From the IMG/VR virus record IMGVR_UViG_3300029267_003532, positions 1 through 64,000 of that record: a stretch of DNA of 64,000 bases. One strand, given 5' to 3'. How positions within the stretch are numbered: the first letter of the stretch is position 1; the number at the start of each line of letters is the position of its first letter. Source of the DNA: a virus. Shown in pieces: positions 736 through 16,231 of the stretch. A program made the translations under genes and the position numbers. The notes beneath the pieces were generated by a model, which saw only the letters and a program-made list of their open reading frames with translations, ran no database searches and was not told the origin of the DNA.

Positions 736-1153
736 CGGAGATCACAATCTCGTGCTCTGGTCCAGTACCCTCATGACGGATGCGAGACGGTTGCTCGGTT
801 CCCAGCAACTTAGCCTCTTGCGCCACGCTGAGACGAATCTCTGTGTAGTCTTTCTCTCCCCAAGCTGCACGCCGAGCCTCGCGCAGTTCGGCCACCTGGC
901 GACCGCGTAGAGTTTCAGTGTCGTCAATGGCCTTTTCCCGCCATTGTTTTCGCAATGCCGTCAAGTCGCGGCTCAGCGTCGACTTATCGTATGGCTTGCC
1001 GTTAACCGGATTGACCAACCCTGCCCCGTGAGGCGATGGCAGAGGCAACCGTTCCTCGATCTCATGCAACGTGAGCCCACGAAGATACAATCGCGCGACC
1101 CACAGTCGTCGATATTCAATTCGCGCCTTGTCGCTTGTCGTCCAACGGGCCAC
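572..1153 (-). CDS. terS: Terminase small subunit-like HTH protein
   Basis: N-terminal HTH (RRLWVARLYLRGLTLHEI...KSTLSRDL), C-terminal 'EAKLLG...HEGTG...DLTDEQ' typical of TerS, and position directly upstream of terL. Confidence 0.75.
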   Translation of the reverse strand: MARWTTSDKARIEYRRLWVARLYLRGLTLHEIEERLPLPSPHGAGLVNPVNGKPYDKSTLSRDLTALRKQWREKAIDDTETLRGRQVAELREARRAAWGEKDYTEIRLSVAQEAKLLGTEQPSRIRHEGTGPEHEIVISDDLTDEQRLARLVALLDRARERRTLGADLTPGTSDSAADENIPPVGRTEPGHTE

Positions 1154-1207
1154 TATTGCACTCCATGCGATGCAATCTTAAATCTGCATCAAATTCGAAA
1201 CTGACCC

Positions 1208-1236
1208 TTGACTTCCGGCCAAACCAGAGCTATGAT
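1208..1236 (+). promoter_or_regulatory. sigma70-type promoter of a small moron-like gene
   Basis: TTGACT-17 bp-TATGAT. Confidence 0.55.
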
Positions 1237-1285
1237 GCCGTCCGAAACAAACAATAACACGAATTGCACAATCGGAGACAGTACA

Positions 1286-1534
1286 ATGCAAATCGAACCA
1301 TTTAGCCCCGAATGGCACGTTCGCGAGCAAGCCTGGGCTGACGAATGCAACGCCAACTTTGAAGACGCCGCCGCACAACTAGTCACCCAAGGCTACACGC
1401 GCCACGATCACGATCGCCGGCACTACCCCTCGACCTTTCACAAGGACGGCGAAACCCAAGTTTTGGTCCGAGACCTAGGTTCCAGCAAATGGCGCGCGCG
1501 CACATACAGCGACAGCGAAATGCACTACCTATAG
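1286..1534 (+). CDS. Hypothetical protein (moron-like, opposite strand to its neighbours)
   Basis: GGAG RBS before ATG 1286 and its own promoter. Confidence 0.6.
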   Translation: MQIEPFSPEWHVREQAWADECNANFEDAAAQLVTQGYTRHDHDRRHYPSTFHKDGETQVLVRDLGSSKWRARTYSDSEMHYL

Positions 1535-2911
1535 GGCCAACTCGCCTTCGACCAGAACAGGCGCCAGACCGAGCCCAACGAGACGCTCCAGAATGACCGC
1601 GACATAGGCCGGTGAAATCTCCATCCCATAGACGAGCCGGCCTGTTTGCTCCCCGGCCACGTGCTGGCTTCCACTCCCCGAAAACGGCTCGTAGCACAGC
1701 TCGCCCATCTTGCAGTGCTGCTCCATCGGAACGGCGAACACCTCGACCGGTTTTGATGTCGGATGCAGTGTGGTTGTACCGGGCGAGATGGTCGGGATTT
1801 CCCACACACTACGTGGGTAATCGTCGGACACCCGAGACGGCTTTTTCCCCTTGACCCACCCGAAAAAGCACGGCTCGTGTTGCCACAGATACCATGATCG
1901 GGTCAACACAGGGCGATCCTTGACCCACACGATTTGTTGATGCACGAACGCGCCAAACTCGGTCCAGACGCCCTCCAGCATCGCCTGGTTGCGAGAAGCG
2001 TGCCAACAATACCAAGCTGCATTGGGCTCGATCGCGTGCTCAACCGCGCAACGGATGAAGCCGCGATATAACTCGCCGTCTGCGTCGCCTTCGTCCCATG
2101 TGATACCATAGGATTCTGACCAGTCCTTGTTCTTGTCCGGCTTGTTCCACTTGTGCGGGTGATTGTCGCCGGTATATCCGACCAGGTAGGGTGGGTCTGT
2201 GGCGAATAGGATCGCGCGCTCGCCGGCCATCAGTCGGGTAACGTCGTCGGGACTGGTGCTATCGCCGCACATGAGACGGTGACTTTTCCCGGGCACACGC
2301 TTGCTTGGAATCTCCCAAATCTGCCCAACTGCTGTTCCCCACTTTTCTTGGAGTTCGGCTGCTTGGTCGATTTGCGGGCCGGGATCCGGAAGCGGAGCCT
2401 CGCCGCCGGCGACCAGTGCACCCCACTCGTCGCCCAGGCTGACCGGCATCTCGCCAGCCTCGGCCAGCCCTCGCAGCACGTCATCGATACCCTCGTTCCA
2501 AAGGCTCATCATCTCGGTAAGGCCGAGGGGGCTGCCGCCCAGCGTCAGATTGTTGTGGTCGATGCCATAGGCTTGGGCGGCAGCCTCGGACGATGCGTCT
2601 ACGCCAAAGAGGACAGGCACGGCCCAGCGGCCGCCTTCAAGGACCTCGACACCACGCGGTGGAGGACTGCTGTCATCGCGCATCGCCGCCAGGGCCTGAA
2701 ATCGTCCGTTCCCTTCGACAATGCCACCCTGGCCGCCGTTTAGCGCTGGCTCGAATTTTGGCGGGTCTTTGAACCCGTGCCGTACGATCGATATGCTGAG
2801 CGCTTCGAGGTCGTGCTTTTTCGGATTCTCCTCCCAGAGCAACGCGATGTCCAGGGGCACGTATTCTAGTCGTAAGCGTTCGGTGTCAGTCAATGTGGTC
2901 TTGGCTCCCAA
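1529..2911 (-). CDS. DNA adenine methyltransferase with ParB-like N-terminal domain
   Basis: DPPY catalytic motif, HPTSKP, EPFSGSGS SAM-binding motif, N-terminal NPKKH/IVEGNGR ParB-like domain. Confidence 0.9.
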   Translation of the reverse strand: MGAKTTLTDTERLRLEYVPLDIALLWEENPKKHDLEALSISIVRHGFKDPPKFEPALNGGQGGIVEGNGRFQALAAMRDDSSPPPRGVEVLEGGRWAVPVLFGVDASSEAAAQAYGIDHNNLTLGGSPLGLTEMMSLWNEGIDDVLRGLAEAGEMPVSLGDEWGALVAGGEAPLPDPGPQIDQAAELQEKWGTAVGQIWEIPSKRVPGKSHRLMCGDSTSPDDVTRLMAGERAILFATDPPYLVGYTGDNHPHKWNKPDKNKDWSESYGITWDEGDADGELYRGFIRCAVEHAIEPNAAWYCWHASRNQAMLEGVWTEFGAFVHQQIVWVKDRPVLTRSWYLWQHEPCFFGWVKGKKPSRVSDDYPRSVWEIPTISPGTTTLHPTSKPVEVFAVPMEQHCKMGELCYEPFSGSGSQHVAGEQTGRLVYGMEISPAYVAVILERLVGLGLAPVLVEGELAL

Positions 2912-3321
2912 TTATGATTAGGATCATAATCTGAATGGTTCAGCTTGTACGCCCGCGCCATCGCCGATACATTGACCATCCGTTCGACCCGCGCACTCAA
3001 TCCTGGAAATGGGGCCAGGTGCGCCGGTATATCGGCCATAATCGGCGCGCAGCCCTCGGGTAGCTCCACACAATACCGGTCGAGCGGGCCAGCATCTCGC
3101 GCCCGCGCCATCAGCGACCACGGCGTGCCAGCGGCATCCACGCCGGCGAGATAGACCAGATCCCCGCACTGCGCTTCGCCCGACTCGTAAGCCGAAACAG
3201 GCTGCGCGACCCACGGCTCCATCTCAGACAAATCGTAGACCCCGCCGCAGTACAACGGCTGGCCGACGTATAACCCGGCATAGATTGTGGCGACCGCGAG
3301 CAAGAGATCCATAATCCACAC
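2890..3321 (-). CDS. Exported protein, possible RlpA/double-psi beta-barrel fold
   Basis: Hydrophobic N-terminus; CGD...ARARDAGP...MADI pattern resembles DPBB domains. Confidence 0.4.
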   Translation of the reverse strand: MWIMDLLLAVATIYAGLYVGQPLYCGGVYDLSEMEPWVAQPVSAYESGEAQCGDLVYLAGVDAAGTPWSLMARARDAGPLDRYCVELPEGCAPIMADIPAHLAPFPGLSARVERMVNVSAMARAYKLNHSDYDPNHNWEPRPH

Positions 3322-3367
3322 AAAACGAATCTAGCCCGGTTCCACCGAACCAGGCTAGACACGTTCC

Positions 3368-3883
3368 CTACACCCGATTGAGCCCCCGCGCCACACTCGC
3401 AGAGACCTGGCCCTGCACGCCGACGATCTGTCGCCAGCGATCAACGACAAACTTGACGAATACCTCCTCGGGGACAATCGCCAACGGCGTGTCGGCGATG
3501 AACTCCCGATAGACCTGTCGGGCTGCGTCCTCGACCTGCGACTGAGGAAGCTCTCTGAGCCGGTTGCCGGTCTCTTCCTTCAGCGCATCGAGGACCCATC
3601 CGACGAATTCCAGTATCTGATCGAGCAGCTCTTCGTCTGTATCCCCTCGACGCTTCAGCCACATACGGAATGCCCAGGTTACGATGGCGAGGACGATCAC
3701 TGCGATCAGTAAAATCCAGACCCACGACGCGGACGGGTCGAGCCCCAGCGCGTGTGCACCGGGTTGGGTTTGGCCCAGCGCCAAGGTGCCGCCGATACCG
3801 CTGAGGATAGTGAGAATGAAAGAGAGGACTTCGATCAGAATAGACAACCACTGTGGACGGGAACCGGAGTCAAAGGTATGCAT
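3368..3883 (-). CDS. Membrane protein, putative holin
   Basis: Two TM helices followed by a charged helical C-terminus; first gene behind a late-type promoter. Confidence 0.5.
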   Translation of the reverse strand: MHTFDSGSRPQWLSILIEVLSFILTILSGIGGTLALGQTQPGAHALGLDPSASWVWILLIAVIVLAIVTWAFRMWLKRRGDTDEELLDQILEFVGWVLDALKEETGNRLRELPQSQVEDAARQVYREFIADTPLAIVPEEVFVKFVVDRWRQIVGVQGQVSASVARGLNRV

Positions 3884-3936
3884 GCTGTCTCCTCGTATCC
3901 CCCCACCAAGTAAAGCTGACAGAAAATGTCAGCTTT

Positions 3937-3989
3937 ATTATACCAAAAGGTATAGTCTCAAGTCAAGGGGAAATAGAACGGATTTTCTA
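3937..3989 (-). promoter_or_regulatory. Late-type promoter with upstream LexA-like box
   Basis: TTGACT-18-TATAAT containing the palindrome TATACC-N4-GGTATA; TAGAACGGATTTTCTA at 3974-3989. Confidence 0.7.
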
Positions 3990-4011
3990 ATCCGGGAAGG
4001 AAATCGAGGGG

Positions 4012-4053
4012 AAAAACAAAGCGCCCTCGACTGGGGGGGGAGGCCGAGGGCGC
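4012..4053 (-). terminator. Intrinsic terminator ending a short transcript of about 70 nt
   Basis: AGCGCCCTCG stem, C-rich loop, followed by TTGTTTTT on the minus strand. Confidence 0.7.
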
Positions 4054-4089
4054 TGTCCTTGCCGCCTTGCATGGGGTTCGGACAAGCTC

Positions 4090-4142
4090 AGTATAGCACA
4101 AACGTTCTGCGAAAGTCAAGGCGGATTAGAACGGATTTTCTA
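4090..4142 (-). promoter_or_regulatory. Second late-type promoter with identical upstream box
   Basis: TTGACT-18-TATACT; TAGAACGGATTTTCTA at 4127-4142; an extra AGAACGTTTGTGCT box in the spacer/-10 region. Confidence 0.65.
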
Positions 4143-4282
4143 GTTTGGGCGGTTCTGAGTAGGAGGGTTAGTAACGAAAGATCACTCTCCTCGGGCAGTC
4201 TATTTCGTGATTTGACACGGGGCTGTTTCAACGATATACTGTGTCTAATGTGTCTTATATGCCTACCTATGGGGTACAGTAA

Positions 4283-4486
4283 ATGTCAAGCATCCTTACT
4301 GCAGGAGAAGCTGCGAAACGGCTAGGTGTTACGCAACGAACCATAGCGCGGTGGATCAAAAAGGGACGGTTTCCAAACGCCTACAAGCTGGATCCCACCG
4401 AACGAACATCTCCCTACCGTATTCCCGTGACCGACATCGTCGCATTCGAGGAGACGCGAAGGACCAGCATCGCCGTAACCGGCTAG
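4283..4486 (+). CDS. xis: Excisionase-like MerR-type HTH protein
   Basis: ILTAGEAAKRLGVTQRTIARWIKKGRFPNAYK...YRIP; adjacent to attP; promoter TTGACA-17-TATACT upstream. Confidence 0.8.
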   Translation: MSSILTAGEAAKRLGVTQRTIARWIKKGRFPNAYKLDPTERTSPYRIPVTDIVAFEETRRTSIAVTG

Positions 4487-4614
4487 TCTCTCCCAAAAAG
4501 AAAGGTCACCAGTGCGATAACACTGATGACCTTAACGCTAGACGCCCAATCTCTCACCCAGAGATATTGCACCTTAACAATTGAATTGTGAAGGCTCTTT
4601 GTTGCGTCTTCGCT

Positions 4615-4657
4615 GTGAGCCACATAGGACTCGAACCTATAACCCGCTGATTAAGAG
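4615..4657 (-). other. attP core: 3' half of tRNA-Lys(CTT)
   Basis: Minus strand CTCTTAA-TCAGC-GGGTT-ATAGG-TTCGAGT-CCTAT-GTGGCTC-AC gives anticodon loop, 3' anticodon stem, T arm and acceptor strand. The 5' half is absent, and the site lies between xis and int. Confidence 0.85.
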
Positions 4658-4720
4658 CAACCAGGTGACGTGGTGATACGTATCAACGGGTCATAGCATC
4701 CGACAACTGTCGTACCGGAC

Positions 4721-5581
4721 TCAACTCGAAATGCCGATCCCAAACCTCATCATTCCGAGGATCAGCCGCAGCGTCTGCAGATCCCCGCCCTTACTCACAT
4801 ACAAGCGGGCAAACGTATGTCGCCAAATGTGGCACATCCGTGGCTTACACGCCACGCCGGCCAGCGCCGCCCGTCGGCGCAAAAGCTGATTGAGCCCATT
4901 CGGCGTCAGCCCTCGGCATGTCAACGTCGCCCGGCCACCCACGGCGACAAACACCGTATCGGCGGCCTCGGGGCGAACCTCCAGCCAGGCCGAGAGAACG
5001 TTCGCCGTCTCTGTCCAAAACGGCACCGTGCGATCGGCGTGCGACTTGGAGCCAGCCGCTCGGACTACCACCAGGCCGCGATCCTCGCCGAGATGAACGT
5101 CTCCTGGCTCCAGGCGCACCAGCTCGCCGGCGCGCAGACCCGTATCGAGCAGCAGCATCATGATCGCCCGATCGCGGAGACCGACTGGACTGTCGTTGCA
5201 CGTGTCCAGCAGCGCCTGGACCTCGTCCAGCGACCACGTCTCGGGCAACTGTCGGTCCGGCTTGATCCGGGGCCGGCCAGCCATCGGGTCAACGTCGAGC
5301 CAGCGCTCAGCAACGCAGAATCGAGTAAACGCGCGGATCGCGCGATCATACGCGGCCACCGTGCCGGAGCGAATCTCAGAGCGCTCGACCCGGGCCTGCA
5401 AGTGCGCGAAAAACACTCGCAGGCTGGAACGAGTCAGGCTCGACACGTCACCGGCGCCCTGTTTCTCCAGGAACGCGATCAGGCTGCCGAGTTGCGTCTC
5501 GTAGAACCGGATCGTCGCCGGCCGTCGACCATACGATCGGCGGTCCAATATAAACTCTGTCAGTGCGGCCTGAAGCTCCAT
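4721..5581 (-). pseudogene. int: Tyrosine integrase (XerC/D-like), apparently C-terminally truncated
   Basis: N-terminal SAM-like domain, RDRAIMMLLLDTGLRAGEL and HIWRH are present; the protein ends LRLILG-MMRFGIGISS* without the LGH histidine or the catalytic Tyr. Confidence 0.75.
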
Positions 5582-5718
5582 AGGGTTCTCCAATGGAATC
5601 AAGCCGCCTTGCAGTAGGGCAGGCGCGGCGGGGTACGCTTCCCAGGGCAACCCCCGTCGCGCCAACCATCTTATCATAGATCCAGATCAGGCGCAAACGC
5701 CACACGAAAGGAACGACC

Positions 5719-5910
5719 GTGGAAGACGAAGCCGAGTATGTAACCGAGGAAGACCCCGTTGAAGCAGCGCTCAAGCAACTTGGGATCGAAAGCGGGGCCT
5801 ATGCCGACAAGTTGCGCATCCTAGCCGAAAAACACTACAGATCCATAGCAAACGAACTGAGGTGGATCATCGACCAGGTCTACGGCGAGCAAATCATCGC
5901 CGAGGGCTAG
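5719..5910 (+). CDS. Small Arc/RHH-like DNA-binding protein
   Basis: KLRILAEKHYRSIANELRWII resembles Arc helices; AAGGA RBS. Confidence 0.45.
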   Translation: MEDEAEYVTEEDPVEAALKQLGIESGAYADKLRILAEKHYRSIANELRWIIDQVYGEQIIAEG

Positions 5911-6057
5911 CCTTACCCGATCACCCGGCACCCAACGCGCGGCGCGGGGCGTACCATTGCCCAGCGCCGCCGGCGCCCCCGAAACCAACGACGCGAAACT
6001 ACGAGCCCGCACGCATACACTCGACCAACTAGCACCGACCACAGGGGGAAATACCGG

Positions 6058-6585
6058 CTAATCTGAATCCACCGACAGCGATCCATCCTCGCTCCTCTCC
6101 CCCTCGTCGCCGCGCAGCCGGCGCATCAGATCAAATACTCGAGCCTGATCTTCCGGCGACAACTGGTCCAGATCCTCGACCATGCTGTACGCCAACTGTT
6201 CTTTGAGCGTGCGCGGCCCAGGTTCGCCGTCCACTTCGTCAGGATACTGTGGCCCCACCTTGGCAGCTAGGCTCTGAACAGTGGACACAATCGCATCTTG
6301 AACGGGGCCTGCTAAACGGCGAAACCACGTCAACAGATTTCGTTCTTTTTCCTCCACTGACGGCATTGAGGGCAGCGGGGGCAGCAATCCAGCGCGGCGC
6401 ATCACCGCATCAGGAGGCAAGTCGAGCGCTTTCGCGATATTGGAGCAGAAATCAAAACTGACCTCGCGCTGACCACCCAGGATCATATAGACGGTAGACT
6501 CACTTATGTCGGCCCGGCGTGCCAACTCGCGCCGAGTCCAACCCCGTTTTCCTAGTTCGGCCAACAGCCAGTTGTTGAAATCCAT
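6058..6585 (-). CDS. CI-like XRE-family repressor (no S24 peptidase domain seen)
   Basis: GWTRRELARRADISESTVYMILGGQR HTH; divergent from a Cro-like gene. Confidence 0.85.
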   Translation of the reverse strand: MDFNNWLLAELGKRGWTRRELARRADISESTVYMILGGQREVSFDFCSNIAKALDLPPDAVMRRAGLLPPLPSMPSVEEKERNLLTWFRRLAGPVQDAIVSTVQSLAAKVGPQYPDEVDGEPGPRTLKEQLAYSMVEDLDQLSPEDQARVFDLMRRLRGDEGERSEDGSLSVDSD

Positions 6586-6608
6586 ACATCACCGTCTATA
6601 TTTCACGC

Positions 6609-6663
6609 TTGACACATCTTTTTTTGTGTGATATAATCATCTTTAGTGTGAGACATTCTCACA
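6609..6663 (+). promoter_or_regulatory. Early rightward promoter and operator
   Basis: TTGACA...TATAAT (6609-6637); palindrome TGTGAGA-CAT-TCTCACA at 6647-6663. Confidence 0.7.
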
Positions 6664-6680
6664 AGACAGGAGAGGCAAGA

Positions 6681-6899
6681 ATGTCACAAGTCGAGCCCGA
6701 CAACATCAAGCCAAGATCCACCATTATACTGCAACCCATTGATCGCGACATTGCAGCCACTTTGATGAGTCGCTATGGTACAAATCTGTCTGCGACAATT
6801 CGAATGGCTTTACGCGACAAGGCTCGGGCGCTTGGACTACAAATTCCCGGACTACAGATCGACCCGCAATCCGCGCCACCTAGCGTCGCCTTGCGATAA
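6681..6899 (+). CDS. Cro-position small RHH-like regulator
   Basis: AGGAGAGG RBS; beta-strand plus NLSATIRMALR helix. Confidence 0.6.
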   Translation: MSQVEPDNIKPRSTIILQPIDRDIAATLMSRYGTNLSATIRMALRDKARALGLQIPGLQIDPQSAPPSVALR

Positions 6900-7017
6900 G
6901 GGCACGCGGGAGAGAGTACGCTTCCCAGGGCAGAACTCTCTCCTCTGCTCGCTCCCTAGTATATCACAACTGTAAAGATTTTGTCCACTCTAGTGTAGAG
7001 ACAGGGGGATTCAAATT

Positions 7018-8016
7018 ATGATCACAACCGGAAACACACATAAACCAGACCAGCACATCATCGTAGCCGCTGACATCGGCTATGGCTATACCAAGGCAAC
7101 GTCCATCATCGACGGCGAGACCCTGACCGTCGCGTTTCCCTCGGCCTATGCCCAGGTCGCCCGCCAACTCCACGACGGCAGCAAGCGCAAGCGGATCCAC
7201 ACCTGGGACAACGACTGGTACTTTGGCAAAGACGCGCTCATCTATTCAAAGTCTCCCATCACCAGTCGCGATCGCAACCGCCCACAGGAGATGATCGAGA
7301 TACTCTTCCTCGGCCTGCTCTCCGAGCTTGGGATCTATCATGGTGAGATCGAGCTGCACACCGCCCTGCCCGTCGAATGGCTGGGCGATGCAGATACCCT
7401 GCGCGGCCTGCTCACCGGCCGGCACATCGGGCAGCGCCTTGATCAGAACGACAAGCGCATCGACGTCACCGTAGGTCGTCCCCTGGGCAACGAGCGCGAG
7501 CGTAGCGGAGTCTTTTTCTACCCTCAGCCTCTGGCCTCCTTTCTCAGCCGGGCCGCCCACGACGACACGCTCTGGGAAGACTGGTCCACCGTACTGATCG
7601 TCGACGTTGGCACTGGCACCTTTAACGAGTGCTTGATCGTGGCAGGGGAGTGGATCGACGAGCGCGCGACTTCCAAGCCCCACGGCCTGGGCGTCGTCCT
7701 CGAGGCCGCCCTCCAGGACCAGGAAGCGCAGACTGGACGCCGTGACCTGCTGCACATCGCGAGGGGAAAGCTCTGGGCGCGCAACCGCGAACTGCTCGAC
7801 CTGGCGCAACCGCACATCGACGCTCTGGCCGAAGACGTCATCCAGGCTGCCGCTGACATCGCCGAAAACATCAGCCTGCAGATGGTCATCCTCACCGGTG
7901 GAGGCGCGCACTTTATCCAGTCACACGTCCGCGCCCGTTTCGGAGACATCGTCAGTGTTTCGCAGTATCCCGAACTCGACAACGTCAAGGGCCTGCTCGA
8001 CGCGGCCACAGAATAG
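7018..8016 (+). CDS. parM: ParM/StbA-family actin-like ATPase
   Basis: DIGYGYTK phosphate-1, PQP, VDVGTGT phosphate-2, LTGGGA adenosine motif and NVKG. Confidence 0.9.
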   Translation: MITTGNTHKPDQHIIVAADIGYGYTKATSIIDGETLTVAFPSAYAQVARQLHDGSKRKRIHTWDNDWYFGKDALIYSKSPITSRDRNRPQEMIEILFLGLLSELGIYHGEIELHTALPVEWLGDADTLRGLLTGRHIGQRLDQNDKRIDVTVGRPLGNERERSGVFFYPQPLASFLSRAAHDDTLWEDWSTVLIVDVGTGTFNECLIVAGEWIDERATSKPHGLGVVLEAALQDQEAQTGRRDLLHIARGKLWARNRELLDLAQPHIDALAEDVIQAAADIAENISLQMVILTGGGAHFIQSHVRARFGDIVSVSQYPELDNVKGLLDAATE

Positions 8017-8017
8017 A

Positions 8018-8078
8018 ACCCCATCGAGTGTATACAATGGTATACACTCGATGGGGTGAATGTATACAATGGTATACA
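8018..8078. repeat. Perfect 18-bp-arm palindrome plus duplicated 18-mer; candidate centromere/operator
   Basis: ACCCCATCGAGTGTATAC-AATG-GTATACACTCGATGGGGT (8018-8057); TGTATACAATGGTATACA at 8029 and 8061. Confidence 0.85.
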
Positions 8079-8079
8079 A

Positions 8080-8343
8080 ATGAAACCCATCTCGGCGCGC
8101 ATCACAGACAACCTATATCAGGCCATCCAGGACCAGGTAGACGCCGGCACGTTTGCCTCTCGCTCGCAGGCCGTCGCCTATTATCTGCAGCGCGGTTTCG
8201 ACGCCGATGCCAATAACCACGAGGCACTGCGCCAGATCGTCCGCGAGGAACTGGCCCGCGTCCAACTCCAGCCGGCAGGACAGCCGGCACAAAAGACCGC
8301 TAACCCCAAGCGCGCCGCCATGCTAAACAAAGTTGTCCGATGA
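8080..8343 (+). CDS. Ribbon-helix-helix protein, ParR-like adaptor
   Basis: MKPISARITDNLY...FASRSQAVAYYL RHH, LRQIVREEL coiled segment and flexible tail; follows parM. Confidence 0.75.
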   Translation: MKPISARITDNLYQAIQDQVDAGTFASRSQAVAYYLQRGFDADANNHEALRQIVREELARVQLQPAGQPAQKTANPKRAAMLNKVVR

Positions 8344-8495
8344 ACGACTACAAAACTGAGATCGGCTGGACAATCGCATTACTTACCCTGATCCTGGGCC
8401 TGCCCGCCTACTACTGGGCGCGGCAGAAACTCGCGGACTACATCCAGCGCCGCAACGCGCCGCCGATCCGCTACAAAGGGAGGAGCACAAAATGA
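8340..8495 (+). CDS. Small single-TM membrane protein
   Basis: MNDYKTEIGWTIALLTLILGLPAYYW..., coupled by ATGA overlaps at both ends; below the ORF-track cutoff. Confidence 0.6.
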   Translation: MNDYKTEIGWTIALLTLILGLPAYYWARQKLADYIQRRNAPPIRYKGRSTK

Positions 8496-9835
8496 AAACG
8501 CGACAAGCAGCACCTGCCGCCGATGGGCTCCGTCCGTTTGTCCTCAATTGGGAACGAAGCATCTGGCAAACTATGCGCCGCCAATCCATTCCCTATGCCA
8601 TCGTCGATAAAGCGCGCGCCGCGCAGACGCTGACTTTCCGCCTGCGCCTGGCCGATGCCGGACATCTCAAAAAAGCGCTCGGTATGTCCGAGCAGATCGC
8701 CCTCGACCTGGGCGTCAAGCGCGTGCGCATTGCGCGCAACCTGGGCTACCTGGACGTCGAGATCGGCCTACCACAGGCCTACCACCAAAAACTGAGCGTC
8801 TCGGCACTGCGCCGCAAAGGCGGTACCTGGGTCGCCCTCGGACAGACCTCGATCGGCACCCCGGTCTACGTCAACCTGGCCGGCAACCGCACCTGTCACG
8901 CCCTCGTCACCGGGGCCACCGGCAGCGGCAAAACCGTCGCTGAGCGTTTGATCGCCTGGACCCTCTCCACAGACAACCAGCCCGACCAGGTCCAACTGAT
9001 CCTGATCGACGGCGCGAAAAAGGGCGCGGCCTGGTGGGGCTTCGAGCACGACGCGCACCTCGCGCACCCGATCATTGTCGACAGCAACGAGGCGGTGGGC
9101 GCCTTGGCCTGGGCCGTGGCCGAGCTCGATCGGCGAATGGCCCAGGCTCGCAAAGGCCCGCGCTTGTTTGTGATCATTGACGAGATCCGCGCCCTTCTCA
9201 ACGTCGCCGGCGACCAGGTCGCCCAGGCCGTCGAGTACATTGCCAGCATTGGCCGCGAGTTCGGCGTACACATCATCGTCGCTACCCAGCACGCCCTCAC
9301 CGACGCACTAGGAGGCAGTATCGCCAAAGCGAACCTCGTCATGCGCCTGACCGGTTGGGTGGCCGATGCGACCGCGGCTCACGTCGCAACCGGGATCAAC
9401 AAATCCGGGGCCGAGCACCTCCAGGGCAACGGCGACTTTTTGCTCGTCGTGGCCGGGCAGGCGCACCGCCTCCAGATGGCAATCGTCGAGAACCGCGAAC
9501 TGGGCCGGCTGGCGCGCTGTGAGACCGTGCCCCGCCTCGAGCTGGACCATAACATTGACCGCGTGCTCCAAGTCGCCAAGCCAGCCTCGCCGCGCAAAGA
9601 TCTCGATACCGAGGCCGAGGCCGTCGCTTATGCTTTGGCAACTGAATGTGGCGCGAATGAACTGCGTGCGCGCTATGGCCCGATGGGTACGACCCGCGCG
9701 CGTCGTATCCGTGACTTTGCCCGTACCCTGCGCCGCGTTCTGCCCGGCCTCGGCTACATCTACCCCCTACCACTGACTACCATATCATCTGAAACCGCCC
9801 GCCAGGCCAAAATTCCAGCATCACTGGTAGGGTAG
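8492..9835 (+). CDS. FtsK/SpoIIIE-family DNA translocase (TraB-like)
   Basis: HALVTGATGSGKT Walker A, LILID, FVIIDE Walker B, GREFGVHIIVATQ, GAEHLQGNGD; possible C-terminal HTH. Confidence 0.9.
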   Translation: MKTRQAAPAADGLRPFVLNWERSIWQTMRRQSIPYAIVDKARAAQTLTFRLRLADAGHLKKALGMSEQIALDLGVKRVRIARNLGYLDVEIGLPQAYHQKLSVSALRRKGGTWVALGQTSIGTPVYVNLAGNRTCHALVTGATGSGKTVAERLIAWTLSTDNQPDQVQLILIDGAKKGAAWWGFEHDAHLAHPIIVDSNEAVGALAWAVAELDRRMAQARKGPRLFVIIDEIRALLNVAGDQVAQAVEYIASIGREFGVHIIVATQHALTDALGGSIAKANLVMRLTGWVADATAAHVATGINKSGAEHLQGNGDFLLVVAGQAHRLQMAIVENRELGRLARCETVPRLELDHNIDRVLQVAKPASPRKDLDTEAEAVAYALATECGANELRARYGPMGTTRARRIRDFARTLRRVLPGLGYIYPLPLTTISSETARQAKIPASLVG

Positions 9836-9877
9836 TAGGGGGTAGGGGCAGGAAATCGAAAGGAAACAGACAGGCAA

Positions 9878-10243
9878 ATGAAAGGCAAATTCTGGATTCA
9901 GATTACTATATCCCTGGTCCTGATCGCCGGGGCCGGCGCGGGCCTCTATGCGCTGATCAAGAGCCTCGACGCCGGCACGCTCAAACTGATCGTGGGCTTT
10001 CTGCTGGCGCTATCGACCATCGTCGTGGTCGGCCTGCTCTATGCCGGAAAGGACGCGCTGCAGGTCTACCTGGTCCGCCGCCACGAGCGCGATGACGACG
10101 TGCGCGATATGCAGCGGGTCGCCCAACTGACCCGCCTAACGCGCGTGCCCCGTGCCACCGAAGCGCCCGCGCTGATGGCCCCGCCCGAGTTCACGGGATC
10201 CTACCGCAACACCATGATCGACGGCAAAGTAGAGATCGAGTAG
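9878..10243 (+). CDS. Two-TM membrane protein
   Basis: Two hydrophobic segments; in operon with the FtsK gene. Confidence 0.7.
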   Translation: MKGKFWIQITISLVLIAGAGAGLYALIKSLDAGTLKLIVGFLLALSTIVVVGLLYAGKDALQVYLVRRHERDDDVRDMQRVAQLTRLTRVPRATEAPALMAPPEFTGSYRNTMIDGKVEIE

Positions 10244-10252
10244 GAGGGTTCA

Positions 10253-10435
10253 ATGATCACCTTGCTGATTGCGCTGATCCTGGCCCTGCTCTGGCGCGTC
10301 TCGCTCGAAACGCGCTTTCGCGTCCCGCGCGCCGTTGGCGAGGCCTTGATGCGTCTCCAGGTCGGCCGGCTGCGCCTGGACCTGATCGTCTATCGACCAC
10401 GCCGCGCCTACGCACACGTGATTGTCGGTCCCTAA
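10253..10435 (+). CDS. Small membrane-anchored protein
   Basis: GGAGG RBS and hydrophobic N-terminus. Confidence 0.6.
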   Translation: MITLLIALILALLWRVSLETRFRVPRAVGEALMRLQVGRLRLDLIVYRPRRAYAHVIVGP

Positions 10436-10459
10436 TTTTGGGCCGTCTCGTTTGTTATA
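10430..10459 (+). promoter_or_regulatory. Phage-specific promoter, copy 1
   Basis: CCCTAATTT-N12-TTTGTTATA. Confidence 0.75.
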
Positions 10460-10494
10460 GAGACACCACAATCACATTTTTCAGGAGGATTGTT

Positions 10495-10800
10495 ATGGGT
10501 CTAGACATGTATTTCAGGCGAGACATCGCCAACGTTCTGCGAGCCACTGCGTGTGCCAGTGAGGGAGCAGCAGGGTTGGCGATGGACATGGTCGAGGAAG
10601 CAAAACTGCGTGCCCAGTTGAACGCAGAGGGGATTCCTACGGAGCAGTTGCTTCGCATCTACCGTTTAGGTGTGCGCAACACGCTGATCTCGGTTGGCCT
10701 GGCATTTGGTTTGGAGCCAGTAGGACCGAGCGCTCAAGTGAGAACTGGAGCAGCCTCGGCACTAGCCAGCCTACTCTGGGCTGAGACACCGAGAGATTAA
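10495..10800 (+). CDS. Hypothetical protein (MGLDMY N-terminus)
   Basis: AGGAGG RBS; directly after the phage promoter. Confidence 0.65.
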   Translation: MGLDMYFRRDIANVLRATACASEGAAGLAMDMVEEAKLRAQLNAEGIPTEQLLRIYRLGVRNTLISVGLAFGLEPVGPSAQVRTGAASALASLLWAETPRD

Positions 10801-10817
10801 ACATTTCAGGAGGAAGC

Positions 10818-10982
10818 ATGTCCATCGTCACTGTGATCTTGGGAATGTTTGCAGCCTCTATCTTGATCACCCTCGGTGTAATCGCCTACCGTGCCGGAGG
10901 CTTTGGATACTACTTGATCGGCATTTCTATTTTGTTGATTGGCTGGCTGATCCGTAGCAAGCTAGAAAACAAGGGCAAGTAA
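10818..10982 (+). CDS. Small two-TM membrane protein
   Basis: AGGAGG RBS; MSIVTVILGMFAASILITLGVIAYRAGGFGYYLIGISILLIGWLIRSKLENKGK. Confidence 0.6.
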   Translation: MSIVTVILGMFAASILITLGVIAYRAGGFGYYLIGISILLIGWLIRSKLENKGK

Positions 10983-10997
10983 GCTATTGTACCGCAT

Positions 10998-11055
10998 AGA
11001 ACAAGCGTTCTTTAGAACAAAGGTTCTTGACTTGGCAGTCCCCTTTTGGTACAAT
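10998..11055 (+). promoter_or_regulatory. Promoter with two tandem LexA (SOS) boxes
   Basis: AGAACAAGCGTTCT (10998) and AGAACAAAGGTTCT (11014) abut TTGACT-17-TACAAT. Confidence 0.8.
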
Positions 11056-11115
11056 CGGGGTAATCCTGCCAAGAAATGTCAGGTTTAACTGCCATTGGGG
11101 GGCTAGGAGGTCATC

Positions 11116-11502
11116 ATGCCATTCGTTATGCAAGGCACCTTGTTTGGAGGTCCGCCCGTTGTCTCCGGCAACGTCGTCGACCGCCTCGAGTACATCCTCA
11201 CCGAACATCCTGAAGCGCGCGACTCATACAAGGCCGCAATGGCCCTCTACTGGCTAGAGTTCGACGGCCTCGACGCCGCCCTGCGCCAGGCGCTCGCGGA
11301 TGCACTCGACGAACGTCAAGCCGACCACCTTTGCGCCGAACTGGCTGATGCTTTTCAGCAATGGTTTGTCCGCTTTGCCACCTCGCCTAAAACGCTACAG
11401 AACCGTGCGATGGAATTGCAGTCAGACAAGACCGAGCTCGATTCCTCGCCCGATGTCCGTAAATGGCGAGATCGGCAGAGCAGGGCGGGGCGGATCAAGT
11501 AG
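11116..11502 (+). CDS. Hypothetical protein
   Basis: AGGAGG RBS and clean ORF. Confidence 0.7.
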   Translation: MPFVMQGTLFGGPPVVSGNVVDRLEYILTEHPEARDSYKAAMALYWLEFDGLDAALRQALADALDERQADHLCAELADAFQQWFVRFATSPKTLQNRAMELQSDKTELDSSPDVRKWRDRQSRAGRIK

Positions 11503-11691
11503 AGGAGAAAAGGATTAGACTTGTGATCATAAATTAAAAGATCAGACCCTGTACCTGGCGGGGGAGGGTCTGATCTACACCGGGAGAAAGGCGGCGCCAT
11601 TTACTCAGTTACGAGTTCAATCCTTTTAACACCCCACCTTTCCTACACACACTATAATAGTTTTTTCACCCAAATGCAAGAGAGGCACAAA

Positions 11692-12000
11692 ATGGATCAA
11701 AAAAGGACCCAAAGGTTTGCGCTCTTTGTTCTCGCCGAGCTGGCCTGGGGGACGCTCTTGGCTCTCTTTCTCCAGCACACGCGCCCCGGCCGCTATCTCG
11801 CTCGCAACAACCAGTCCTGGCTCGCCGTTGTCATCGGCGTCGCCGGCACCCTGATCATCGAGCTGATCGTCTCTCCTCTTCGCGCCGTCTGTCATAGCGC
11901 CCTGGCCTTCGCACTCTCTGCTGTCGGCATCGTGGCCCGGTCGCTGATCAACGAGCACAAGCTAGAAAGGACCCTCCACGATGCCGCGCACAGATCCTAG
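11692..12000 (+). CDS. Three-TM membrane protein
   Basis: Hydrophobic segments; GAGG RBS. Confidence 0.6.
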   Translation: MDQKRTQRFALFVLAELAWGTLLALFLQHTRPGRYLARNNQSWLAVVIGVAGTLIIELIVSPLRAVCHSALAFALSAVGIVARSLINEHKLERTLHDAAHRS

Positions 12001-12402: not shown

Positions 12403-13779
12403 ATGACACAAAACACATTTCCGGGTTTTGTCCCCCCAACCGAAAACTGGAGCAAATTGCCCCACGTCCTGATCGAGGCACTGCCCTTGATCGAAACTGT
12501 TGGCGAGCTCAAGATCATCCTCTATGTGCTTCGCCACACCTGGGGCTACCACGAGACAGAAAAGCGTATCTCTCAAGATGAATTCGAGAACGGTCGCAAA
12601 CGCAAAGACGGCACGCGCCTCGACCCTGGCACCGGGCTCTCCCGAAACACCATCAAGGACGGCATCAAACGTGCCGTCGCTCATGGCTTTATCATCGTCG
12701 AAACGGATGACCACGACAAGGCCCGCATCCAACACTGGTATCGCCTCGCGGAACTGGCGCCTTCAGAGGGTCAAAAGTTGCCCCCCACCCACGAGCCGGA
12801 GGATCAAACTTTGACAGGTGGGGGTCAAAGTTTGACCCCCAGAGGGTCAAAAGTTGACCCCCCAACCGCGCCAGAGGGTCAAACTTTGACCGTCGTACAT
12901 GGAAAGAAACCTGTAAACAAGAAACAAACCAACAGAAAGAAAAATACCGGCGCATCCGCGCCGGCCCCAAATCCAGCACAGCAGCAGCTTGCTCGTCTTC
13001 GTTCCAAACTCGGCAGCGATCCCCTTTCTGTAGCGGCTGCATCAGAGCGAGCACAACAAGATGCCGGCGGGAGGATCTGGACCATACCTGTCGAAGCGGG
13101 GGGCACAGATACCGCCGGCGCGCTCATGCTCCGCGCCTGGCTGGAAACCAACCAGCTCGATCCCGATCTCGTGCCGAAAAAGACACACGACAAATACCAG
13201 GCCGCTCTTTCCAGGCTGGCTTCCACATTCGATACCCTTTCCCCCGCGCAGGCAGCCAATGCCGTCGAGATCGTCCTCGATCGCGACAACCCTGAATTCA
13301 GCTACTACACCTATGCTAACCCATCTGTCAAGAAATTCGCCGATGATTGGACCGCCGTTGCTCTGCGCCTGCTCTGCGGCCAGCCCGGCTACCTGACTGT
13401 GACTGGAAAGGTCCCACGCAACTATGACAACCTGATCAACCGTGGCGACACAGAAACCGATTTGATCATACCGGATAGCAATACTGCCGAATGGATCATC
13501 CCTCACGAGCCGCCATCCGAGGCCACCCAACTCTGGCACGCCGTCCAGGACGAGCTCAAACTTCAAATGACCCGCGCCACCTTCAACACCTGGATCAAAC
13601 CTCTGACCTGCCTCAGCCTGGACCGTGACGCCTGCACCGCCACGCTCCAGGCCCCCAACGCCTACATCGCCGAATGGATCACAGAGCGTCTATCCGCGCC
13701 CATCGCGCGCACCCTGGCCGGCGTCGCCGACCTGCCGCCGGATCAATTCTCCTTTACCTGCCAAGCGAGTGAACAATGA
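12403..13779 (+). CDS. Replication initiator (O-like wHTH N-terminus) fused to a C-terminal DnaA N-terminal domain
   Basis: ELKIILYVLRHTWGY...ISQDEF...GTGLSRNTIKDGIK; C-terminus LWHAVQDELKLQMTRATFNTWIKPL...APNAYIAEWI resembles DnaA domain I. Confidence 0.85.
   Translation: MTQNTFPGFVPPTENWSKLPHVLIEALPLIETVGELKIILYVLRHTWGYHETEKRISQDEFENGRKRKDGTRLDPGTGLSRNTIKDGIKRAVAHGFIIVETDDHDKARIQHWYRLAELAPSEGQKLPPTHEPEDQTLTGGGQSLTPRGSKVDPPTAPEGQTLTVVHGKKPVNKKQTNRKKNTGASAPAPNPAQQQLARLRSKLGSDPLSVAAASERAQQDAGGRIWTIPVEAGGTDTAGALMLRAWLETNQLDPDLVPKKTHDKYQAALSRLASTFDTLSPAQAANAVEIVLDRDNPEFSYYTYANPSVKKFADDWTAVALRLLCGQPGYLTVTGKVPRNYDNLINRGDTETDLIIPDSNTAEWIIPHEPPSEATQLWHAVQDELKLQMTRATFNTWIKPLTCLSLDRDACTATLQAPNAYIAEWITERLSAPIARTLAGVADLPPDQFSFTCQASEQ
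12766..12945 (+). repeat. Putative replication origin: five palindromic iterons and an A-rich tract inside the initiator gene
   Basis: GGTCAAANNTTGACC-like units at 12769, 12802, 12823, 12845 and 12877 (spacing 33/21/22/32), followed by A-rich 12903-12945. Confidence 0.8.
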
Positions 13780-14024
13780 AACGTGGAACCATTGGAACCC
13801 TATCTGCATCCAACAAAGCCGTTCTGGCCGGCATCCAAATCTACTGGGACGTCAACGGCATCCCACCCACAGTGCGCGATCTCTGCACGCAACTGCACAT
13901 CGCCTCGACGTCCACCATCCACCACCACCTCGACCGGCTCGAACGCCTGGGCTACATCCAGCGTCGACCCGGTATCCCGCGTTCCATTCGTATCACCCAG
14001 AAAGGCGCCCCCAATGCTGCCTAA
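13776..14024 (+). CDS. LexA-type DNA-binding-domain-only protein
   Basis: GIPPTVRDLCTQLHIASTSTIHHHLDRLERLGYIQRRPGIPRSIRI; no peptidase domain. Confidence 0.85.
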   Translation: MKRGTIGTLSASNKAVLAGIQIYWDVNGIPPTVRDLCTQLHIASTSTIHHHLDRLERLGYIQRRPGIPRSIRITQKGAPNAA

Positions 14025-14924: not shown

Positions 14925-15461
14925 ATGAAATACGCCGAGAAATCGCCCTACTGGGTCACAACGGTCAACCCGTACAAATCCCAAGCCGAGATCATGGTCC
15001 TCCTCGAGGACTTCGGCGCAACCAACAGCATGGTCGCTCAGGGCCAGGCTGACGGCAAACTGGCTTGGCTCGTCCGCTTCGAGTACGAGGGCGTCGCGCA
15101 CCGCTTCGCCTTCACTCCGCTCGAATGCGAGTACCCGGACAAGGTCTCCAGCTTTGGCGGCACGCGCCGCAAGCACTCGGACCAGGCCCGGTTCCAGATG
15201 GGCCGCACCGCCGCCCATTTCACCAAAGCGATCCTGACTGCAGCCGAGTCCCAGCCGCACGCTCTCTTTGGCTTTGTCGAGCTGCCCGAGGCTGGCTACC
15301 ACGCCGGCGGCATTCCGGTCACAGCCGGCGAGCTCAACATAGACGGTCTGGTGGGCCAGCTACCCGAACTCTCATTCGGAGACATCGGCTCACGTCAGGT
15401 CCTGCTACAAGCCGAGACCCCGGACATCCGCGTCGAGTACGTTGGTGAGGTGGTCCAATGA
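14925..15461 (+). CDS. Conserved phage hypothetical protein
   Basis: GAGG RBS; operon-coupled. Confidence 0.65.
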   Translation: MKYAEKSPYWVTTVNPYKSQAEIMVLLEDFGATNSMVAQGQADGKLAWLVRFEYEGVAHRFAFTPLECEYPDKVSSFGGTRRKHSDQARFQMGRTAAHFTKAILTAAESQPHALFGFVELPEAGYHAGGIPVTAGELNIDGLVGQLPELSFGDIGSRQVLLQAETPDIRVEYVGEVVQ

Positions 15462-16231
15462 CCACCCCCAAACGCTATGACTGCATCTACCAACCGGCCG
15501 GCCGCGCACGCGAATACGCCCCCTGGGCGCTCAACCTCTACCGCGGCTGTGATCACGGCTGCACCTACTGCTACGCGCCGGCCATCGTTCGCATAGACCG
15601 CGCCGAATTCCACGCACACCCGACCCCATACCGCGACATCCTGCACCGCGTCGAACGCGCCGCCAAGCGAGCCAGTGGCCACGTCGAGCGGGTCCTGCTC
15701 TGCTTTACCAGCGATCCACACCAGCACCTCGACAGCCAGACCGGCCTCACCGGCCAGGCCATCGAGATACTGCACTGCAACGGCATCAAGGTCACGCTCC
15801 TGAGCAAAGGCGGCTGGCGCTCGATGATCGATATTGAGCGGCTTGGCCCCGGCGACGCCTACGCGACCACCCTGGCTTGCCCGCAATCCAGGGTGGCCGA
15901 ATGGGAGCCCAACGCCGCGCCCATCTCCCAACGGCTCGACGCGCTCGAACACGCCCGCTATCACGGCGCGGACACGTGGATATCTTTCGAGCCGGTGATC
16001 TGGCCCTGGGCAACCCTCGAGCTGCTCTCCCTGGCCCAAGGCCTGATCACCCACTGCAAGGTTGGACCGCTGAACTATGCCAACCGCCTGCCGGCGCACC
16101 TGCGCGCCCAGGTCCCCGAGGTAGACTGGGTGCAGTTCGCCGATAGCTTCCAGGCGCTATGTGATCGGTACAGGGTCGTGTGCCAGTTCAAGGAAGAACT
16201 TTATACCCGGATCGAGGCTGCTATCAAGTAA
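15458..16231 (+). CDS. Radical SAM protein (SplB/Rv2578c-like)
   Basis: LNLYRGCDHGCTYCYA, TSDP, WEPNA, WISFEP. Confidence 0.85.
   Translation: MTTPKRYDCIYQPAGRAREYAPWALNLYRGCDHGCTYCYAPAIVRIDRAEFHAHPTPYRDILHRVERAAKRASGHVERVLLCFTSDPHQHLDSQTGLTGQAIEILHCNGIKVTLLSKGGWRSMIDIERLGPGDAYATTLACPQSRVAEWEPNAAPISQRLDALEHARYHGADTWISFEPVIWPWATLELLSLAQGLITHCKVGPLNYANRLPAHLRAQVPEVDWVQFADSFQALCDRYRVVCQFKEELYTRIEAAIK

Follow-up and report, generated by a model that had tools for sequence, protein, structure and literature searches.

An FtsK-type translocase paired with a two-pass membrane protein, and an exchangeable actin-like partition cassette, in the early region of a temperate tailed phage

The sequence examined here, hereafter the window, comprises bases 1-64000 of a 79,955-base virus record in IMG/VR (IMGVR_UViG_3300029267_003532; 92% complete by CheckV) and belongs to a temperate, tailed, siphovirus-type phage. 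Immediately to the right of its CI/Cro switch lies a run of plus-strand genes that encode, in order, a ParM-type actin-like ATPase, a small protein resembling ribbon-helix-helix (RHH) DNA-binding proteins, a 51-amino-acid (aa) single-pass membrane protein, a soluble FtsK-type translocase, a 121-aa protein with two transmembrane (TM) helices (the 2-TM protein), and a 60-aa membrane protein (Table 1). An initial annotation of this stretch described the six genes as a tightly coupled operon whose products are like the Streptomyces transfer proteins TraB and Spd, and the open reading frame (ORF) list bears out the gene set, its strand and coordinates, and its place as an early rightward operon just behind the switch. 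The translocase proves to be kin to DNA-translocating FtsK, it is paired with the 2-TM protein throughout its family, and genes for partition NTPases recur directly upstream of the pair in distantly related tailed phages.

Several lines of evidence identify the translocase as a motor of the FtsK type. A profile of its family (37 members) matched FtsK motors in the Protein Data Bank (PDB) at 3e-50, EccC at 7e-30 and TcpA at 3e-20, and an AlphaFold (AF2) model of the protein (pLDDT 87) matched an FtsK motor in Foldseek with an E value of 1.6e-27, aligning 376-392 columns of the alpha/beta region at TM-scores of 0.67-0.72, with TcpA, EccC and HerA far behind. Across the 37 family members, residues G144, G146, K147, E231, T265 and Q266 are invariant and D230 is nearly so, which accounts for the Walker A, Walker B and ATQ motifs. 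An alpha domain precedes the beta domain, as seen from PF17854 on many family members and from a PDB profile alignment that starts at profile position 19, and there is a single ATPase domain rather than the multi-ATPase-domain architecture of EccC/EssC. About 35 residues precede the alpha domain, and no TM segment is present, hydropathy over 19 residues reaching 1.16 at most; the N-terminal 4-TM domain (PF13491) was found on no family member. The soluble FtsK-like SftA of Bacillus subtilis may be an analogue. In its alpha and beta motor, its Walker A/B and ATQ motifs, and a gamma-like domain with a G-x-x-RA-x-R helix, the phage protein resembles the cellular FtsK of P. aeruginosa and E. coli (PDB 2IUT, 2IUS, 6T8B), but identity is only about 24%, and in place of the 4-TM domain and linker the phage has a separate 2-TM partner. 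Genes annotated as FtsK-like are also known from mycobacteriophages of cluster J and from numerous phages of Bacillus.

The C-terminal three-helix domain gave a colinear hidden Markov model (HMM) alignment with the gamma domain of three cellular FtsK proteins (…LR…G..RA.RI…), with an hhalign probability of 61% and an E value of 8e-5. Pfam PF09397 (gamma) is not called on the window FtsK, and a model of the isolated domain (pLDDT 68) found no significant fold match, with 5DCF (the XerD C-terminal domain with FtsK gamma) reaching only Z 3.5. Because the fold searches with the isolated domain gave no significant match, we refer to it as gamma-like, which it probably is, and not as gamma.

Trees built with FastTree (93 rows) and IQ-TREE (LG+C20; 44 rows) agree. 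The window FtsK family is monophyletic (98), its sister is a clade of short FtsK proteins from viral and metagenome contigs, and the two together sit with canonical cellular FtsK, with EccC apart in a clade of its own. The small FtsK-like proteins of Streptomyces/Kitasatospora and of mycobacteria are also apart from the window family. By profile, fold and trees alike, the protein groups with DNA-translocating FtsK and not with the type VII ATPase EccC or with defence ATPases. It is thus highly improbable, in our estimation, that the genes serve superinfection exclusion or defence, with a membrane-associated FtsK/HerA-type ATPase and small membrane proteins intercepting or expelling foreign DNA. 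PADLOC does return partial matches to SspH (1.3e-20) and mads_8 (1.7e-15), and small membrane protein genes do lie near the immunity region, but a defence-family identity was rejected since in both cases a much larger protein is matched in its generic ATPase domain only, and true FtsK is far ahead in the PDB and profile searches. In addition, other defence components are not adjacent, the genes stand behind P_R and not in a lysogenically expressed unit, and the cellular homologues, described below, are SOS genes.

Relatives of the locus were found by alignment-based scans of viral contigs, a single-protein scan having given none. The closest, loci L163 and L164, have FtsK proteins 83-87% identical and an integrase 81% identical to those of the window phage, with which they also have the CI, Cro, 51-aa, 121-aa and 60-aa genes in common. 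Among the family loci with sequence at that position, a 2-TM gene (90-157 aa) lies directly 3' of ftsK in 11 of 11, and the 20 representative clusters of the 2-TM family all measure 111-162 aa, with none fused to FtsK. In these proteins the loop has the motif x-R-L-S-D-Q-A…VLxG, and the cytoplasmic C-terminal tail is conserved, acidic and ends in FxGxYRD..(I/V)E(I/V)E. The 2-TM proteins of the sister clade are related to those of the phage by hhalign (75%, E 2.6e-5); hhalign alone reached them, and an iterated HMM of the 121-aa protein did not. We infer that the 2-TM protein may anchor the motor to the membrane in trans, a role usually filled in cis by a domain of FtsK itself. Of the accessory membrane proteins, the 51-aa product has a Kyte-Doolittle value of about 1.3 (calculated by hand), and its L163 homologue one of 2.5, with a clear TM helix in the L163/L164 homologue; for the 54-aa protein, no homologue was found in the fetched relative loci.

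The genes upstream of this set resemble a type-II partition cassette. Beyond the matches in Table 1, the ParM-like protein shows weaker ones to TIGR03739 (PRTRC-D, 4.6e-13) and NF010498 (ParM, 4.6e-6), and its actin motifs DIGYGYTK, DVGTGT and GGGA are intact as read from the translation. The RHH gene, which more likely starts at ATG 8080 than at GTG 8056, gave only a ParD-type RHH match at 0.0018 and one to phrog_4738 (repressor) at 0.0075. In the gap between the two genes, the copies of TGTATACAATGGTATACA form 18-bp near-palindromes at 8029-8078 where 0 are expected by chance, and these GTATAC repeats may serve the RHH protein as centromere or operator; the same gap also has a weak promoter-like site at 8041-8070. 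No clear iterons were found in the L163 cassette.

In L163 and L164 a different actin-like protein (ALP) gene (ALP_N with MreB-like_C) sits exactly between the conserved region of the parM ribosome-binding site (RBS) and the 51-aa gene. The L163 ALP has no BLASTP similarity to the window ParM, and an unrelated 78-aa gene after it replaces the RHH gene, so that the putative adaptor has been swapped along with the ALP. Elsewhere, a ParM 76% identical to that of the window (P0231) and an FtsK 61% identical (P0013) have matching contig records, with four contigs each and the longest of 78,133 nt, which suggests that the two lie on the same contig. Given an unrelated ALP beside an 83% identical FtsK in L163, together with the P0231/P0013 pairing, the parM/RHH genes are an exchangeable cassette that is swapped independently of FtsK. 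Independent exchange is typical of incompatibility determinants. The idea of a single operon thus holds for the six genes as an early transcription unit, but the unit is composed of two modules, not one.

The linkage between the modules is nonetheless recurrent. A partition NTPase is encoded just upstream of ftsK in sister viral contigs as well, as an ALP in L003, L017 and L005, and as ParA with a ParB-like gene in L009. L005 carries tape measure and Dit genes, and L003 and L017 have integrase, replication and radical-SAM genes in common with the window phage. The order partition NTPase, FtsK, 2-TM protein therefore recurs in several distantly related tailed-phage contigs, and the cluster is conserved. 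The radical-SAM genes of the window phage are at 15458-16231 and 20917-21552, and in L003 and L017 an HNH-like and a helix-turn-helix (HTH) gene are found between ftsK and the 2-TM gene (L017:9868-10176).

The metagenome members of the short-FtsK sister clade are chromosomal. A full-length LexA is encoded directly upstream, with transketolase, FdhD and CcmF genes on the flanks. In at least 14 loci the short ftsK is preceded, at 10-50 nt, by one or two perfect SOS boxes, and a DUF6504-like gene is found downstream in 19, which gives the cellular operon listed in Table 1. This short FtsK is soluble, consists of alpha and beta only, and comprises more than 4000 protein clusters, of which the named ones are from Anaerolineae, Caldilineae or Chloroflexota, with one stray from Proteobacteria. 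The cellular operon resembles the phage genes in its sister FtsK, in the same FtsK/2-TM pairing and in the same type of SOS box, and differs from them in an FtsK without the gamma-like domain, in direct control by LexA and in a third conserved gene. A literature search on Chloroflexota FtsK with LexA or DUF6504 found no paper. These loci also bear on the host. The same type of SOS box (GAAC-N4-GTTC) occurs ahead of the phage replication operon and in the cellular lexA-ftsK loci, and the LexA DNA-binding domain encoded by the phage is related to the LexA that precedes the cellular short ftsK. Together with the names in the sister clade, this makes a Chloroflexota host plausible and indeed likely, though well short of certain. 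The Anaerolineae and Caldilineae, the likely host lineage, are filamentous.

The cellular operon also lends itself to an explanation in which two unrelated functions share one phage operon: ParM and RHH would be a replication organiser like AlpC/AlpA, and FtsK and the 2-TM protein would come from the host SOS regulon and act on the host, for example by clearing or moving its chromosome or by blocking division during phage development. We consider this unlikely, even though the sister clade of the FtsK/2-TM pair is a LexA-box-preceded chromosomal operon (lexA-ftsK-2TM-DUF6504-like), the partition cassette is swapped independently of FtsK, and the phage genes occupy a delayed-early position. SOS division inhibitors in other bacteria, moreover, are small membrane proteins encoded beside lexA. 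What speaks for more than a chance association is that ParM or ParA stands directly upstream of FtsK in independent phage lineages, and the gamma-like domain, kept by the window family and lacking from the cellular short form, points to a specific DNA target. The precedent for the first half of this explanation is prophage CGP3 of Corynebacterium glutamicum, whose AlpC/AlpA is early-induced, links circular phage DNA to filaments and is needed for replication of an integrating prophage (PMC4446434). CGP3 likewise combines an actin-like protein and an adaptor on an integrating prophage, but with the gene order reversed, the adaptor coming first, and the abstract names no FtsK or 2-TM partner (PMC4446434).

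At the 3' end of ftsK, codons of the YPLPLT tail and the leader of the 2-TM gene together hold a cluster of facing CTAC and RGTAGGG repeats. Both sides are conserved with covariation in L163, L170 and L172 (CTACC/GGTAGG versus CTTACC/GGTAAGG in L170 and L172), and the subfamily with the YPLPLT tail is the only one to carry the cluster. A structured RNA at this position was considered and rejected, since the RNA fold was not significant (z-scores of -1.6 to -2.6) and the structures disagreed from locus to locus. Neither GGTAGGG nor the KOPS-like GGGNAGGG is enriched in the 64-kb window. The cluster is a candidate for either an RNA hairpin or a protein-binding site, and it is the single feature that might specifically recall clt. 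In pSVH1-type plasmids, clt lies at the 3' end of the translocase gene.

The TraB/clt/Spd system of Streptomyces (pSVH1, pIJ101; PMC4447253) is like the phage locus in having a single FtsK-family double-stranded DNA (dsDNA) translocase with a C-terminal DNA-binding domain (gamma-like in the phage), genes for small membrane proteins downstream of it, and short repeats close to its 3' end. The two differ in that the phage ATPase is phylogenetically not TraB and has no TM segment, the phage membrane proteins show no detectable relation to SpdA, SpdB and KilB of pIJ101, and the phage forms virions and probably has a host other than an actinomycete. A tree constrained to unite the window family with the small FtsK-like proteins of Streptomyces/Kitasatospora, which are taken here as Tra-like and are putative Tra only, was worse by 17.5 log-likelihood units (approximately unbiased (AU) test, p = 0.024). 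With the family profile, those proteins scored 54-67 bits and the authenticated pIJ101 Tra, which forms a long unresolved branch in the trees, scored 40 bits, against 170-208 bits for cellular FtsK. HMMs of the 51-, 121-, 60-, 54- and 120-aa proteins found no match in pIJ101 (spdA, spdB, kilB) or in 60 actinomycete loci. The assignment of the translocase to the TraB family thus fails, that of the small membrane proteins to an Spd-like class finds no support among the sequences compared, and the comparison may serve as an analogy.

As such an analogy, one may suppose that a membrane-tethered FtsK hexamer, guided to clt-like repeats by its C-terminal domain, would pump phage dsDNA by way of septa or cell junctions into neighbouring cells of the filament without virions, with the small membrane proteins in the part of Spd proteins. 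The DNA-translocase-type motor with its gamma-like domain, its constant pairing with small membrane proteins, the 7-8-bp RGTAGGG/CTAC repeats at the 3' end of ftsK and the filamentous habit of the likely host lineage would all suit such a role. The idea also has published antecedents for other phages: SpdB2 homologues occur in actinophages, where a role in spreading phage DNA has been suggested for them (PMC4447253), and a 'DNA translocation operon' proposed to move phage DNA, and dispensable in the laboratory, was described in Bacillus phage 0305phi8-36 and its relatives (Pathria et al. 2012; PMC3357382). The latter operon resembles ours in a translocase ATPase without TM segments, separate membrane-binding proteins and an actin/MreB-like protein, but its translocase is TraG/VirD4-like (AAA_10) and accompanied by a MobC-like relaxase (PMC3357382), whereas that of the window phage has FtsK alpha, beta and gamma-like domains. 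No relaxase family (MobC-like/Replic_Relax) matched among the early-region ORFs scanned, nor was a type IV secretion gene found among them, and the recurrent linkage is with partition genes and not transfer genes. Given in addition that the FtsK is no TraB relative (AU p = 0.024 against a putative Tra-like clade; 40 bits for pIJ101 Tra against about 190 for cellular FtsK), that the membrane proteins lack similarity to the pIJ101 Spd/KilB loci, that the repeat cluster is limited to one subfamily and not enriched genome-wide, and that the closest cellular homologues are chromosomal SOS genes and not transfer genes, we regard virion-free spread of this kind as quite unlikely. A fuller evolutionary version, in which phages of filamentous Chloroflexota recruited a septal FtsK/2-TM pump from the host SOS response, added a gamma-like domain, coupled it to actin-based partition and so gained virion-free cell-to-cell spread along the filament, is in our view very unlikely.

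In the surrounding early region, the CI-like gene is divergent from a P_R-like promoter and the Cro-position gene, whose product has no match in Pfam. By analogy with lambda, we take the hairpin between cro and parM to be at the position of nutR/tR1 and the leftward promoter-like site to be at that of P_RE. Their position after cro and the tR1-like hairpin puts the genes from parM to ftsK in a delayed-early slot. The tight coupling claimed in the initial annotation is found in parts of the run, in the two 4-nt overlaps that join the RHH, 51-aa and ftsK genes and in the 9-nt gap between the 2-TM and 60-aa genes; it is looser at the 63-nt repeat-filled gap after parM and the 42-nt gap after ftsK. 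No strong terminator was seen within the gene run, and since SOS boxes and a promoter lie at 10999-11055, the transcription unit probably runs to 10982. The operon that starts there includes the gene g128, one for a DnaA_N-type replication initiator and one for a protein consisting only of a LexA DNA-binding domain, and host LexA may directly control phage replication. Perfect SOS boxes number only three in the whole 64 kb. The LexA-like product, an 82-aa protein encoded at 13776-14024, is a LexA DNA-binding domain alone (PF01726, 1e-14) without S24 peptidase and could, from its domain content, be a LexA mimic that cannot be cleaved. Tape measure, major head and tail protein genes (the last also on the minus strand) and a GpA-type terminase, all found among the window ORFs, supply the tailed-phage context.

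Table 1. Features of the phage window, and the cellular counterpart operon in the last row.
Feature	Position	Strand	Remarks
GpA-type terminase	begins 735		runs off record start
Excisionase-like xis	4283-4486		
tRNA-like att core	4615..4664	minus	beside xis and int, unrecombined in record; alignment with L163
XerC/D-like tyrosine integrase	4721..5677	minus	PF00589 6e-22; TIGR02224 1.7e-33
CI-like HTH repressor	6058..6585	minus	PF01381 7.7e-10; kept in L163 (5e-54)
P_R-like promoter	6609..6637	plus	TTGACA-17-TATAAT with extended TG; 12/12 consensus positions; perfect sigma70
Cro-position gene, 72 aa	6681..6899	plus	ORF; kept in L163 (2e-24)
Hairpin between cro and parM	6908..6943	plus	L163 alignment: compensatory stem changes, loop conserved
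Leftward promoter-like site, TGGACA-18-TATACT	6958..6987	minus	sequence conserved in L163
ParM-type actin-like ATPase, 332 aa	7018..8016	plus	PF17989 ALP_N 1.5e-12; phrog_691 'partition protein' 3e-31, full length
Repeats	8018..8078		two copies of TGTATACAATGGTATACA (four GTATAC in 48 bp) and 18-nt perfect inverted repeat
RHH-like small DNA-binding protein, 87 aa	8080..8343	plus	ParR/adaptor position; weak matches only
51-aa single-pass membrane protein	8340..8495	plus	overlaps RHH stop and ftsK start by 4 nt each
Soluble FtsK-type translocase, 447 aa	8492..9835	plus	PF01580 1e-22; phrog_1358 2.6e-36
Repeat cluster	9754..9848		four CTAC in codons of YPLPLT tail facing three tandem RGTAGGG before 2-TM RBS
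121-aa two-TM partner of FtsK	9878..10243	plus	two clear TM helices
60-aa N-terminally anchored membrane protein	10253..10435	plus	one TM helix; conserved in L163 only
Soluble protein, ~100-120 aa	10438..10800	plus	homologues beside ftsK in L197, L201, L224, L206, L006, L014
54-aa two-TM protein	10818..10982	plus	probably last gene of unit
Two perfect SOS boxes (GAAC-N4-GTTC) abutting sigma70-like promoter	10999..11055	plus	next operon start; one box at same place in L163
Tape measure gene	52977-56180	minus	
Major head protein gene	59729-60805	minus	
Cellular operon lexA - SOS box - short ftsK - 2TM - DUF6504-like	L193:8487-11927		also L178, L182, L191, L195, L198, L218, L223, others

The integrase and its attachment site inform the lifestyle of the phage. 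In the IMG/VR record, the integrase gene is missing 43 nt at about 4755-4758 relative to L163, which removes the LGH..Y catalytic motif (His/Tyr), but the main contigs in four of the four sequencing runs holding phage DNA have 39 extra letters at this gap (the reverse complement reads HASIETTQVYLA). We ascribe the truncation to an error in the record or to a rare variant, and take the integrase as intact. An obligate plasmid prophage arising from integrase decay was dropped for the same reason, and with an intact integrase in the population contigs a stable plasmid state is not required. Each of the four runs has a contig that bridges 3918-4644, and with it the unrecombined att site; a branch in the assembly graph falls at 4615-4657, and in L163/L164 phage genes flank int on both sides. 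A free, unintegrated form of the phage therefore exists; nothing further follows from the att junction, and the assemblies with the unintegrated junction could stem from virions or from replicating DNA. ARAGORN found no complete tRNA gene in the window or in L163, and a contig joint from 7808 to 9599 was disregarded because one of its sides has 21 letters only. The k-mer depth left of the att core (1-4400) is about half that of the right side (4800-12000) in all four runs, and contigs of the runs hold two sequence variants at 115-319. This half depth and these two variants suggest that strains co-exist which have the early region in common and differ in the packaging arm.

Actin-based partition has precedents in temperate phages, as a ParM-like protein with an RHH/HTH partner maintains the Bacillus plasmid prophages vB_BceS-IEBH, Bp8p-C and vB_BtS_B83 (PMC11526630). 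Like the window phage, these are temperate tailed phages in which an actin-like ATPase gene is followed by one for a small RHH-type protein, with short repeats, and B83 also carries Xer-type recombinases. They differ in that the window phage has a host that is probably in Chloroflexota, a cassette placed within the early operon behind P_R and linked to FtsK/2-TM, and an integrase that appears intact.

Our preferred interpretation, which we hold tentatively and with rather less than even confidence, is that the genes segregate extrachromosomal phage DNA by means of actin filaments and a membrane-tethered FtsK pump. Two co-transcribed modules would handle the phage's own extrachromosomal DNA. 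The first, comprising the ParM-like ATPase, the RHH adaptor or regulator and the GTATAC repeats, would act as a type-II partition system that positions and separates circular phage genomes. In the second, the soluble FtsK motor would work with the 2-TM protein and small accessory membrane proteins, the 2-TM protein anchoring the FtsK hexamer in trans in place of the cellular N-terminal 4-TM domain, and the gamma-like domain possibly orienting the hexamer. Tethered at the membrane or at a closing septum, FtsK would then pump dsDNA phage genomes out of or across the division plane, with the outcome that daughter cells of the host filament each retain a copy of the phage. The delayed-early position behind Cro and the tR1-like hairpin suggests that both modules would act after infection or induction, when the genome is a free circle.

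A number of observations weigh against segregation of phage DNA in this manner. To our knowledge, no experiment has been made on any phage FtsK-like protein. The intact integrase in the population contigs means that a plasmid state is not needed, and genes placed behind P_R are unlikely to be expressed constitutively in lysogeny. The GTATAC repeats lie between parM and the RHH gene and not upstream of parM as in the R1-type parC, and with only two 18-bp units they may be an operator for the genes from RHH to ftsK. One locus of the window family (L166) has AAA_25 and IstB-like genes upstream and no partition gene, and the gamma-like domain lacks a significant fold match. As the cellular FtsK homologues are SOS genes, the module could instead target host DNA or host division. 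In addition, 0305phi8-36 showed no phenotype in the laboratory when its analogous island was deleted (PMC3357382).

Similar blocks of partition and translocase genes were already known from other phages. To these the present locus adds a clean pairing of FtsK with a 2-TM protein, a gamma-like domain in the motor, and a cellular homologue under SOS control. With the ParM cassette exchangeable, FtsK and the 2-TM protein invariably together, and a LexA-controlled counterpart in the cell, the question of function is testable. Does the 2-TM protein tether an FtsK that lacks a membrane segment? Which DNA is moved, and is it only distributed to daughter cells, or carried across finished septa too? 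If virion-free spread were true, the phage genes would match Streptomyces TraB in function, having evolved from FtsK independently. The chromosomal lexA-ftsK-2TM operon, for its part, may be an unrecognised part of the SOS response and cell-division control in Chloroflexota. More broadly, partition systems joined to DNA translocases recur in tailed phages of chain-forming or filamentous bacteria, in Bacillus, in actinomycetes and now, probably, in Chloroflexota.

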